A stretch of 64,000 bases of DNA from Tubiluchus corallicola (Eukaryota > Animalia > Priapulida): positions 558,001-622,000 of the forward strand of contig JAQGDQ010000024.1 in the NCBI GenBank assembly GCA_030141605.1, given 5' to 3'. This document shows positions 56,514-63,910 of the stretch, piece after piece (positions within the stretch are counted from its first letter, which is position 1; each line of letters opens with the position of its first letter). Below the pieces are notes generated by a model that made no database searches, was not told where the DNA came from, and worked only from the letters and a program-made list of their open reading frames with translations. A program made the position numbers and the translations under genes.

Positions 56514-59500
56514 ATGTGGTCAGCGGTTCGGAGTCAAAGTCCATGGAGGACTGTAGTTCGGACACTGAGCTGCAGTACTACCAAACAGGCAGTCAAAACA
56601 CGGTGCAGCAGAACCCTGCATGCGACACAGATAAGGCAGCAGTCTTCTAGCAGTTCTAGCAAAAACATCAGTAAGTAAAATATTAGACAGATAGCTAGGC
56701 TAATGCCTTTAAATACAAAAATAAAATACTGATTAAATGGGAAAACAAAATACAAGAAACATTTTCCATTTCTTATTTATAATAGTAAAAAATGTCAAAA
56801 AGAACGAAAAGGAGGCAGTGCGGTCAGTGTCGACAGCAAATCCTACAAGCAAGTCGTCAACGCCGATGCAAGCCGCCGCCACTCAAGCAGCTTATAAGCT
56901 GAAACCGTCTGAAACAGTGGAGAAGGTTCCACCTGCACCTCGTACGTTACCAAAGCAAACCTGGACTGTCATGGACGGTAAGATGATTTCTTATGATTGA
57001 ATTTTAAATGTGAATGCAAACTTCTTCAGTTGATTATATTTTTATCTTTAGTCGATATTTCATAATATTGATATTTTGACATGAAAGGAGCAGTGCTACA
57101 CTAAAATTGGATTTGCACGTATGCAACTTGTAACACAGAGTAAGCAAACACCTTAAGTGAAGTATTTTATCACCTTGAATTGTAGTTTGAGATCATGGAG
57201 TATGACAGTTCTAAAATTACTGTAAAAGGCAGTTAAAAACATTTTCTAATTGTCATTGTCATATATTCTTTGACATTAAATCACTCACTCTAGGCCATTA
57301 AGTCCTTTATTATCAATGTCATGCCCTTCACCTGGTACAGCAAATTATGCAGTTATTATTCAAAGCTATTCTAATTTAAAATATAAGCACATGTTTCTGG
57401 TACGATTCAGGTAATGAAGCTGCAGCTTATGTGGCTTACGCTATGAGCGAGACATCATTTATTTATCCCATCTCTCCTGCAAGCTCTATGGGTGAACACA
57501 TGGATGCCTGGGCTGCCGCACACAGAAACAACGTACTCGGACAGGTATTCTGTTTGGCAACATTCTTTTTGCAATTCTGATTTAACTTTAATTTCTTCAT
57601 GGGACTTATAAATGGCACATTAACTTGTAAGAAAATATATATCATGTTTTAACCACTTAACTGAAAAGTCTAGATTTTTTGTGTTGACAGGGTACTTAAC
57701 TACCAGCAATTGGCAGAATAGCTTTCACTTATCTTAAAAAGAATTAAATGGCTTTTTGTACAAAAAAGTAAGTGAATAAATTAATTAAATTTTTCAGCCA
57801 GTAGATGTCAACATGATGCAGTCTGAAGCTGGCGCAGCTGGAGCTTTGCATGGAGCCGTGGCAGCTGGAGCTCTTACTAGCACTTTCACTGCTTCTCAGG
57901 GTAAAATCATTCATACTTTGCAACGTCTCGGATCACTGTAGCTTTTATCTTCGTTTTCTAAGAAAATACAGTCAGCATTTGAGTAACTGCAAACACTCGC
58001 TTGTATCAGTGCAGCAAATTTTGTTTTTGCTCATGTACATTCGATACTTGCTGTAGCTGCTGACACTGTGCAAAGAGATGAAATTGTAGCTTTTTAAAGA
58101 TCTGATAGATTTCAGAAGTTCTAATGTATAGAAAAGCATTTTAACATTCATCCGCCAACACTTTTCATAAAATATTTTTATGCTGATTTTGTTGTATTGT
58201 GTAAGGCTTTCTTGTGTACTGTTTTGACCATAAATAACCAAATAAGCATTTGAATTTATATTCATCTGATAGCCTAAACTGCTATAAATACACAAACGTA
58301 AACAAACCTATTTTTCACCAAATGTTCGGTTTTGTTTCGTCAAATTGAAATTTGTTGATCAATGTGCTAGACAAGGTATATGTTTTTGTTAGGTTTACTT
58401 CTGATGATACCAAATATGTACTTGCTGGCTGGTGAGTTAATGCCGACCGTATTGCATGTTTCTGCTCGGACAGTATCAAAGCATGCCCTATCCATCTTCA
58501 ACGATCACTCGGATGTTATGGCATGTCGTCAGACTGGATTTGCAATGTTGTGCTCTAGTAGTGTCCAGGAAGTCATGGACCAGGTTTGGCATTCATGCTC
58601 TCTTTAAGATTAGTTTGATTTTTTTCATAGACGATAAGGTCTATTGGCCGATTAAACATCCGAGTTCCGTACCATCATCATACATATGTAATCCCAGTAG
58701 GCAATGCTTCTAGACGTAATATGTTATTAAATTTGCAAGTTGACTCAGATGTTTCAGCATGCTGAACTGTAACTCATTATTCTTCTACTTTTGTTTTGTT
58801 CATGTTCATATTTGTTTTTTCAAATTGCTTAAGTATATATTGCTTAACATAGGGTTTAGTCGCTCACCTTGCATCGTTGAAATCTCGAATACCTTTCCTT
58901 CATTTCTTTGATGGTGGACGCACCTCCGCAGAAGTTTCGAAGATCCGACCCATCGCATACGAAGACATGGCAACCATTTTTCCTCATGTAAGTATTCCTT
59001 ATGTGATTTAAAAAACATAACTTAGAAGTTCGATTGTTTATGCAATGTAGGGTTACATAAAGTTTAATGAATATCAGATATAAGTTTGCATGTGTTAATC
59101 CATGTCAGTTGAATCTGTGAGCATGGTCATTTGAAAGTTATAGAAGTGAATTATGCGGTAGTCTTCACTTTTTAGCATAATACAGTGCTGTTATTCATAC
59201 CTATGAAAATTGTTATGACTTGGTGTGTTATTAATGTGCGTAATTATTGACTGGGTCTTATGTTAGCATGCAACAGCCAAAATGAAAACTATAGAAATCA
59301 AGAATTCTAGTGTGTTTTAAGTGGTATGGATCAATAATAAATACAGTGTGAGAAGTGTACATTTTTAAAATTTTTGTGGATTTCACATTTTAGTCTGTTG
59401 ACTCTTTTCTTTAGTCTTTTATCAAACTATAAAAAAAGTTTTTGGTGATTTGATATGTGAATGAGCTTTGCTGAAATTTCAGTATATTTGAGTTATTGTC

Positions 59501-62500: not shown

Positions 62501-63910
62501 TGATGAAATAAATTGACAGTCCTTGTACTGTCAAAAATTTATTATCACGTTTGCAGAGTAAATGCCAAAATAGAAAAATTGACAAAGATATGACATCCAT
62601 CGATATCCACTGACGCAAATTTAATAATCAAAGAGCTTTTTTACTTTATTTATATTTGAGTTATTAGCTCACTCCAAAGGAAAAAAATGACATGCATAAA
62701 AGCGTTCCTCCTTGTCTGCTCAAATAATTAGGTTTTTCACAATGTTTTAAATTTACACTTTCAATTTTCATTACTTTAGGTAAGCCGATATCAGCAGTCC
62801 CAACTGGAACGAAACAGTGTGTGTTCTGGGGCTTGGGTTCTGATGGAACAGTTGGTGCTTCAAAGACTGCTATCAAAACGATAGGTAGGCACAAAGTAAA
62901 ATGTGTTTGTTGCTTGTGTTATTTTTATTTTGTTTTCTTTCTTTTTTTTGATTGACCATTTTATTACTTACCTACGCAGAATAAAAAATTGACAAAAACC
63001 TTTGCAACACTTGTTTTAGTAGCTATTTTTTAGCTTTAAGATAACTTTTGTTTCTGTGCTATACAGGATTAAATACAGAAATGTATGGACAAGGACATTC
63101 GATTTATGATTCACACAAACAAGATGGCGTCACCATTTCGCATGTGCGGTTTGGCCCTCAGGAAATCAAAGCTGCATATGCGATCGGTAAGTTACAATGT
63201 TTTCATAAATCATAAGAATTTAGCATACATACTTTTTTGCGTAGCCTATTGCAAAATTTCTGTTTCAATAGGTGTAAAATTGTAGTCTAGGAATAACTGG
63301 TAGCTACCTGCTGGGATGTTATCTTTTTTCTCACTATCTGCTTTTAGTCATCCCTTCCACACCCTTCCTCTTGGGTCCTCGCCTCCACCTACTGCCCCTG
63401 CCTCACATGCTTTCTGTTCAAGCTTTGACCTTGGACTAAGCTATGACACGACCAATTTTTGTCTGAATAAAGCAAAAATTAATAAGCAAGTGCAGAGACA
63501 TTTTGAAGGTTGTTGACAATAACATTTTTTTGCATTTTCTCAGACTTTGTTTCCTTATTTTTTTACATTGTGTTTCTAACTACTGTTGAAAGGGCTTGAC
63601 TTAGAAAGAAGTGTTATTAATGCAATTGATCTAGTCATTTTGAGCATTTATTTTACCATTGTTGATGTAAAAAACCACTTAGATCTTTACTGCCAATTTT
63701 ATTAAAAAAGAAAACAAAGAATTTTTTAACAATGAAATTTTAAGAATTAGTGTGATTGCATTTATTTGCAGTTGACTTTTTTGTTTTTAAGGAATAATTG
63801 CGCATGTTTAACCATGATTATCTGTTATTTTAGCTAGCCATGCAGATTATATTTCCTGTGCTCATCCATCATATGTACACAAGTTTGACATGCTGTCCCC
63901 TTTGAAGAAA
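56514..63910 (+). CDS. PFO: Pyruvate:ferredoxin (flavodoxin) oxidoreductase, NifJ/homodimeric type (PFO, or the PFO moiety of PNO), with N-terminal mitochondrial-type presequence; 3'-partial, 13 exons and 614 codons in window
   Basis: Exons 56514-56670, 56786-56977, 57411-57544, 57798-57900, 58393-58583, 58853-58987, 59572-59759, 60013-60115, 60482-60666, 61231-61382, 62780-62884, 63067-63186, 63834-63910; all GT-AG, 1842 nt, with no stop or frameshift. Motifs in canonical order: [57 protein letters not shown]...[103 protein letters not shown]. Confidence 0.96.
60847..61144. mobile_element. Tc1/mariner (pogo/Tigger-like) MITE in PFO intron 9
   Basis: 19-bp TIRs CAGGTAGTCGTCGACTTAC / GTAAGTCAACGGCTACCTG (17 of 19 match), flanked by TA on both sides. 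Confidence 0.88.

Follow-up and report, generated by a model that had tools for sequence, protein, structure and literature searches.

A spliced and conserved gene of the pyruvate:ferredoxin oxidoreductase family, likely NADP-linked, in the priapulid Tubiluchus corallicola

A 64,000-nucleotide stretch of Tubiluchus corallicola DNA (contig JAQGDQ010000024.1, positions 558,001 to 622,000), referred to here as the window, encodes near its downstream end the N-terminal third of an enzyme of the pyruvate:ferredoxin oxidoreductase (PFO) family, likely of the NADP-linked kind (PNO), in a nuclear, spliced and conserved gene that continues past the window end (Table 1). Joined, its 13 coding exons form 1842 nt or 614 codons with no stop; all 12 inner introns, which span 115 to 1397 nt, have GT..AG ends, the donor of intron 13 is likewise GT, and the GC fraction is 0.47 in coding and 0.31 in intron sequence. 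This uninterrupted frame had been proposed in an earlier note made from the letters alone, and it stands, with the Pfam domains in their proper order. The same note took the product for the N-terminal half of a PFO, which is correct as to the N-terminus and too generous as to the half: of the 1845 residues in the Lingula protein, the gene model aligns to 1-586, and the PFO-like part of about 500 residues (codons ~114-614) would make up roughly 43% of a stand-alone PFO, with a putative presequence and linker in the N-terminal ~110 residues. At equal exon density, we estimate that about 15 kb of the gene is still to come past the window.

Exon by exon, Pfam matched POR_N on five exons, PFOR_II on one and POR on one, in profile order and with six of the 13 giving no match, so that the three domains lie in one chain and in the order of single-chain NifJ-type PFO. 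Exons 3, 4 and 5 match the solved PFORs of Moorella thermoacetica (6cin) and Desulfovibrio africanus (1b0p), with which domains I-III are colinear. At the substrate site, Arg221 and Glu171 align with Arg114 and Glu64 of the D. africanus enzyme (DaPFOR). Thr31 and Arg114 are the ligands of the pyruvate carboxylate in that enzyme (PMC5020499). The window protein keeps the Arg and Glu positions, but differs from NifJ-type PFOR in having Ser for Thr31, ~110 extra N-terminal residues and spliceosomal introns. The Ser is Ser138, in a YPISP motif, where it is a conservative replacement for the conserved Thr of YPITP, and in exon 6 a Gly takes the place of the aromatic residue of the FFDG motif, a change common only to Priapulus among 231 proteins with the motif. 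The first 50 residues contain nine Arg or Lys, no Asp or Glu and 19 Ser or Thr, with an amphipathic stretch of helical moment 0.70, and a presequence-like N-terminus was also present in seven of the eight relatives examined. Such a basic, amphipathic composition is typical of mitochondrial presequences, and in composition and helical moment the N-terminus fits a putative mitochondrial presequence.

Six candidate sequencing runs were considered, none recorded as RNA, and four were aligned to the window. X6 is a run of another study under the same species label and from a second population, about 5% divergent, available as contigs only and taken as RNA by guess. In two X6 contigs, 11 of the 12 coding introns are missing, each with its predicted length; intron 6 falls in the gap between the two contigs and its junction was not seen joined, and the joint of intron 9 was placed two bases off at the predicted length. 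X6 also skips a 3485-nt intron with GT..AG ends in the 5' untranslated region (UTR; mapped joint 52985->56471), with zero depth in all eight bins wholly within it. Past position 63910 the second X6 contig extends for at least 255 letters, the first 30 of which, in frame, are the next conserved PFO stretch.

Table 1. Features of the PFO-family locus, in window positions (position 1 is the first letter of the window)
Feature	Position	Strand	Remarks
First non-coding exon (likely)	39412..39490	+	X6 letters matched; start approximate
First intron (likely), 13.4 kb, GT..AG	39491..52908	+	Contains PHYH; from the upstream exon and the acceptor at 52907-52908
PHYH, phytanoyl-CoA dioxygenase	49591..50568	-	Pfam PhyH, E 1e-49; coding part intron-free
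Second non-coding exon	52909..52987	+	Two upstream ATGs; joint to coding exon 1 in X6 and X5
Coding exon 1	56473..56670	+	ATG at 56514 (coding part 56514-56670); presequence-like N-terminus
Coding exon 2	56786..56977	+	Linker as far as the start of the PFO core
Coding exon 3	57411..57544	+	POR_N; YPISP motif, Ser138 aligned to DaPFOR Thr31
Coding exon 4	57798..57900	+	POR_N; Glu171 aligned to DaPFOR Glu64
Coding exon 5	58393..58583	+	POR_N; Arg221 aligned to DaPFOR Arg114
Coding exon 6	58853..58987	+	POR_N; Gly in FFDG motif position
Coding exon 7	59572..59759	+	POR_N end
Coding exon 8	60013..60115	+	Domain II
Coding exon 9	60482..60666	+	PFOR_II
Coding exon 10	61231..61382	+	Basis: gene model, X6 splicing, Lingula alignment
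Coding exon 11	62780..62884	+	Domain III start; next intron likely common to Priapulus
Coding exon 12	63067..63186	+	POR domain
Coding exon 13	63834..63910	+	Gene continues past window end

The divergence of X6 also bears on selection. We evaluated 41 differences (55 were found in the main alignment, and 40 of these and one other were used), of which 38 are coding, 36 of them silent and two replacements, against a chance expectation of about 24% silent. The excess of silent changes has p ~1e-13 for the core, and the gene is under purifying selection. Were the gene damaged downstream or catalytically dead, and so a relic or a protein with another role, this could be hidden in the two thirds of the protein that lie outside the window, and the Ser for Thr in the substrate motif and the Gly for the aromatic residue in the FFDG motif could be read as its first signs. 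However, 36 silent changes among 38 are not what decay would leave, Ser is the rule in PNO, that of Diplonema included, the Arg and Glu are kept and the Gly is common to Priapulus, and we regard loss of function as very improbable.

It is likely that the transcription unit reaches upstream of the ATG at 56514 by two non-coding exons and starts near 39.4 kb. The first X6 contig has 77 unplaced letters ahead of 52908, of which the last 30 were examined; 21 of these match 39469-39489 with three mismatches, at a single place in the window and in none of 100 shuffles, a further 10 letters upstream agree once a single T indel is allowed, and a GT donor lies at 39491. The chance test applies to the 21-letter match only, the longer pattern having been fitted after the match was known. 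The PHYH gene would then be nested, antisense, within the first intron, and we consider this arrangement likely. By eye, the 5' UTR (52909-52987 and 56473-56482, + strand) has two upstream ATGs that open reading frames of 4 and 14 codons; the 14-codon frame crosses the splice joint, and both end ahead of the main ATG.

The identity of PHYH given in the earlier note was confirmed by Pfam, and every taxon-labelled match among the best 120 to its product is from an animal, at no more than 64% identity; two further relatives are 92-94% identical. Since an animal-type PHYH lies inside the likely first intron of the PNO transcript, a chimeric join between animal and protist DNA is very unlikely. The one point in favour of a protist contig misjoined to animal DNA is that no single DNA contig in the aligned runs spans PHYH and the PNO exons with 31 letters on each side. 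Against this, the X6 transcript likely starts upstream of PHYH and hence spans it, GC at third codon positions is 0.41 as compared to 0.43, and the protein clusters with those of five further animal genera and apart from protists. In addition, single-copy contigs of X1, a run which may be the source sample, tile 45-64 kb at depths of 160-196, and the depth is nearly equal at PHYH (195.6) and PNO (186.1); the coverage break that had been named as a danger to the assignment is absent, and depth is even over the putative join. We find a misjoin hardly credible.

Relatives were sought with exon 5 as query, for which 7996 proteins were scored and the best 120 used, and then with the best full-length match as a new query. 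None of the best 120 of the 7996 is a protein of this species with exon 5 in it. The uniqueness among animals that the earlier note implied is not supported: named homologues were found in Priapulus caudatus (XP_014679013, partial), Lingula (XP_013418498), the chiton Liolophura (XP_064607290), Owenia and the siboglinids Lamellibrachia (KAI0216320) and Ridgeia (KAK2183201), and PNO in animals is already in print (PMC12403961). Over the 350 residues covered in Priapulus, the window protein is 85% identical to Priapulus and 71-78% to the other animal-clade rows, animal pairs from different phyla are 69-78% identical, and Diplonema and Euglena mutabilis are 62-64% identical to the window. For the core, identity to the nearest relatives is 70-78%, as compared to 53-59% for bacteria, the range of the bacterial and archaeal PFOs compared. 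In 362 columns the window and Priapulus have 13 private residues in common, where other rows have 0-2.

Trees were made with FastTree (124 rows) and with IQ-TREE under LG+C20+F+G4, the latter from 50 rows by 500 columns taken from the FastTree set, without near-duplicates and most bacteria, plus four named members. Both recover the animal clade with full support (100/100 in IQ-TREE), with the window and Priapulus as sisters (100/99) and the whole nested in eukaryotic PNO on a 100/99 branch of 43 rows. A tree constrained to place Owenia with the siboglinid group, and so to make annelids monophyletic, was not rejected (p-AU 0.10), and the data are therefore compatible with descent within animals. 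Membership of an animal PNO clade is borne out by monophyly with annelid, mollusc, brachiopod and priapulid copies, by introns of host type and by the animal neighbours. The sister of the animal clade differs between methods, being Euglenozoa in IQ-TREE, with weak support (90/77), and other protist-like rows in FastTree; the trees contained no named unicellular holozoan (choanoflagellate, ichthyosporean or other). In FastTree, 48 PNO rows from environmental and transcript contigs cluster with the siboglinid copies, which suggests that sediment and water samples commonly contain animal PNO. A metagenome scan with exon 5, in which 2 of 64 parts were covered, gave 80 loci at 76-84% identity and none from the animal clade. 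A PNO labelled as from the amphipod Hirondellea gigas (P0155) falls with foraminiferan-labelled rows outside the animal clade, and is likely to come from food or a contaminant; it is not among the animal copies counted here.

By definition PNO joins a PFO to a P450-reductase domain in one protein, and it is O2-sensitive (PMC3879968, PMC6732389). Because every one of the nearest full-length relatives is a fusion, the NADP-linked form would be likelier than a ferredoxin-linked one for the window gene, whose C-terminus lies past the window end. Each of the five full-length named animal relatives carries two CxxCxxCxxxCP motifs along with GDG, an Asn996-type motif and a flavodoxin motif, and the Lingula protein matches PFOR over residues 85-1250 and NADPH-P450 reductase over 1271-1845. 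The substrate motif points in the same direction, with YPISP in 102 of 104 fusion-length proteins and YPITP in 85 of 94 proteins of at most 1260 residues, the other nine being cut-off calls of the eukaryotic clade with YPISP; its use as a PNO marker comes from the protein set of this analysis and from no published definition. A stand-alone, ferredoxin-linked PFO that had lost the fusion, perhaps coupled to a hydrogenase as in hydrogenosomes, would be compatible with a C-terminus outside the window and with the 11 of 60 animal-clade rows (a redundant set, with 31 whole fusions and 18 rows that reach the flavodoxin) that end ahead of the flavodoxin motif. These 11, however, have tails leaving homology or cut ends, and for two of them the flavodoxin piece is called on a contig of equal size; as YPISP goes with fusion and each of the five full-length named relatives is one, we judge loss of the module improbable. 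A fungal fusion of the sulfite-reductase type was set aside, as no such name occurs among the matches and the relatives have PNO architecture. The resemblance extends to protist PNOs (Euglena, Diplonema, Cryptosporidium, dinoflagellates, foraminifera), which have a PFO core with YPISP, a putatively mitochondrial N-terminal extension and the P450-reductase-like fusion seen in the animal orthologues of the window gene; they are 60-65% identical to the window, and it is the protist enzymes that have been studied biochemically, while the window copy is in an animal. In contrast to NifJ-type PFOR and its free ferredoxin, the relatives of the window gene have their own NADP-reducing module.

We consider it probable that the gene encodes a mitochondrial PNO which makes acetyl-CoA, CO2 and NADPH from pyruvate and CoA beside pyruvate dehydrogenase (PDH) under low O2. 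The PDH-independent route to acetyl-CoA put forward in the earlier note thus remains likely, the gene being a genuine and conserved member of the PFO family, and its choice between a ferredoxin-linked and an NADP-linked route narrows to a likely NADP-linked one. The downstream exons would carry two [4Fe-4S] motifs, the thiamine pyrophosphate (TPP) domain and an FMN/FAD/NADPH module, as in the full-length animal relatives. Imported by way of its basic N-terminal presequence, the enzyme would decarboxylate pyruvate on TPP as a homodimer in the mitochondrion, and electrons would pass from TPP through three Fe-S clusters to FMN, FAD and NADP+ within one chain, with no need of free ferredoxin or hydrogenase. 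Animal anaerobic mitochondria are drawn with PDH and with malate dismutation to succinate, propionate and acetate (PMC6856725). By our own reasoning, in anoxia the matrix NADH/NAD+ ratio would be high and PDH held back, and an NADP-linked enzyme could keep the oxidative, acetate-forming branch of malate dismutation running and add no NADH, with its NADPH consumed by transhydrogenase, in reductive lipid synthesis or in thiol repair.

Several points weigh against this proposal. The Fe-S, TPP and flavin parts lie outside the window, so that the fusion is inferred from relatives only, and within it Ser138 replaces a conserved Thr. The reading of X6 as RNA depends on a guessed type and on one run of one study, and the UTR joint is also present in X5, a run labelled DNA by guess. 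From this gene taken by itself a priapulid-like host is likely, but no Priapulus PHYH is among the best 120 PHYH matches. In the literature searched we found no activity, localisation or hypoxia data for animal PNO, and in Diplonema neither transcript nor protein levels of PNO followed oxygen (PMC8611851). Because of this unresponsiveness a hypoxia role is not automatic, and PNO might mainly be a steady mitochondrial source of NADPH and acetyl-CoA, for lipid synthesis and thiol repair at any O2, and not a matter of anaerobic energy. Consistent with this, Euglena PNO is active in aerobic mitochondria (PMC8611851), algae express PNO in air (PMC6732389) and the spliced form is present in X6, for which no hypoxia treatment is known. 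On the other side, most of the named carriers live in burrows, in tubes or at vents. Moreover, in Alvinella PNO is accompanied by other markers of anaerobic mitochondria, and the animal has a rhodoquinone-type COQ2, a soluble fumarate reductase and AOX (PMC12403961). We therefore think a steady supply at any O2 unlikely as the main role, and prefer a PNO working beside PDH under low O2.

As to how animals came by the gene, the earlier note offered old transfer or retention from a pre-metazoan ancestor. The animal clade rules out a transfer confined to this lineage, and the last common ancestor of protostomes likely had PNO already, with later losses in many lineages; the gene may have come by transfer into the bilaterian or protostome stem or have been retained from older eukaryotes. 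Intron patterns bear on this question and differ sharply between animal lineages. Homology of the Priapulus protein (P0023 in our set) stops exactly at window intron 11 (62885), its tail resembling read-through into a GT donor, and this intron is likely shared. In contrast, siboglinid PNO genes (P0413, P0414, P0418, P0049, P0409, P0417 and P0419, with P0412 and P0415) are called as single open reading frames (ORFs) of about 1320 codons, with another of about 395 behind; the genomic contigs that hold them range from 6.6 kb to 1.18 Mb. These copies lack window introns 4-13, whereas the window has 10 introns in codons 196-614. No gene caller is named for these contigs, yet the heads and tails that leave homology mark them as plain ORF calls, and three copies are 98-100% identical to Lamellibrachia or Ridgeia. 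The siboglinid copies have one N-terminal intron, seemingly two codons from window intron 3. As a lead, annelids may have lost introns, for example by retroposition, or the ancestral animal gene may have been intron-poor, as a transferred gene would be. It is conceivable, though we would not expect it, that an intron-poor PNO passed from another eukaryote to the bilaterian or protostome stem, gained introns in each lineage, and works in the anaerobic mitochondria of mud-dwelling ecdysozoans. If true, the PDH-only picture of anaerobic mitochondria in animals would have to be redrawn, and there would be a concrete enzyme to seek in Loricifera.

The window gene is a further member of a little-studied animal PNO family and no first discovery. 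The only report of animal PNO that we found in the literature searched, from which subscription journals are mostly absent, states that Alvinella pompejana encodes PNO and that the gene occurs in siboglinids, other annelids and some non-chordate bilaterian taxa, and its supplement has a 1822-residue Alvinella model with YPISP (PMC12403961, 2025). The text of that report available to us has no taxon list, tree, assay or gene-structure work on animal PNO, that of PMC7060179 nothing on PFO, and within the same scope we found no biochemical study of animal PNO. Reviews give animal anaerobic mitochondria PDH and malate dismutation only (PMC6856725), with PFO-type chemistry assigned to protists and algae. 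With the other animal PNO genes the window shares membership of one clade, YPISP, a presequence-like N-terminus and 71-85% identity over 350 residues; it differs in coming from a species with no named protein among those compared (best 85%) and in the likely presence of PHYH in its first intron. The locus thus likely adds an intact-looking, spliced and strongly conserved PNO copy on the ecdysozoan side, with an animal gene, likely nested in its first intron, that removes the doubt of contamination. Loricifera are close to priapulids. These ecdysozoans have hydrogenosome-like organelles for which there are no biochemical data (PMC2859860), and what such organelles run on becomes testable, as does pyruvate oxidation in hypoxia-tolerant invertebrates when PDH is blocked.

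Other features of the window are of less consequence. The neighbours named in the earlier note held up for CDC123, with Pfam D123 on two exons, while the gene at 1-7 kb belongs to the myosin-tail family, and the paramyosin of the earlier note is plausible only. The Atlas clusters matched were PhyH and myosin-tail, and Pfam on 80 further frames gave myosin-tail and EGF matches only, the latter on two frames of a multi-exon gene with EGF-like repeats at 18980-21235 (- strand). PHYH, an O2-dependent dioxygenase which may be a retrocopy, has at its N-terminus what we take to be a motif resembling PTS2, the type 2 peroxisomal targeting signal; reciprocal regulation of PHYH and the PNO gene would be speculation. 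By eye, a short, diverged tandem duplicate lies at 50640-50840, just upstream of the PHYH start and around a minus-strand splice acceptor. Between CDC123 and the first PNO exon, a 79-codon stop-free frame with a hydrophobic end (37790-38032, + strand) has no Pfam match. A strongly A-rich, Lys/Glu-rich low-complexity stretch at 14429-15261, likely of + sense and with no family found, accompanies an AT skew of +0.22 in 14-16 kb. Depth peaks mark high-copy repeats at ~46.0, 52.0, 61.0 and 62.2 kb, and microsatellite arrays of the TCAG type lie at 4100-4350 and 11543-11812.

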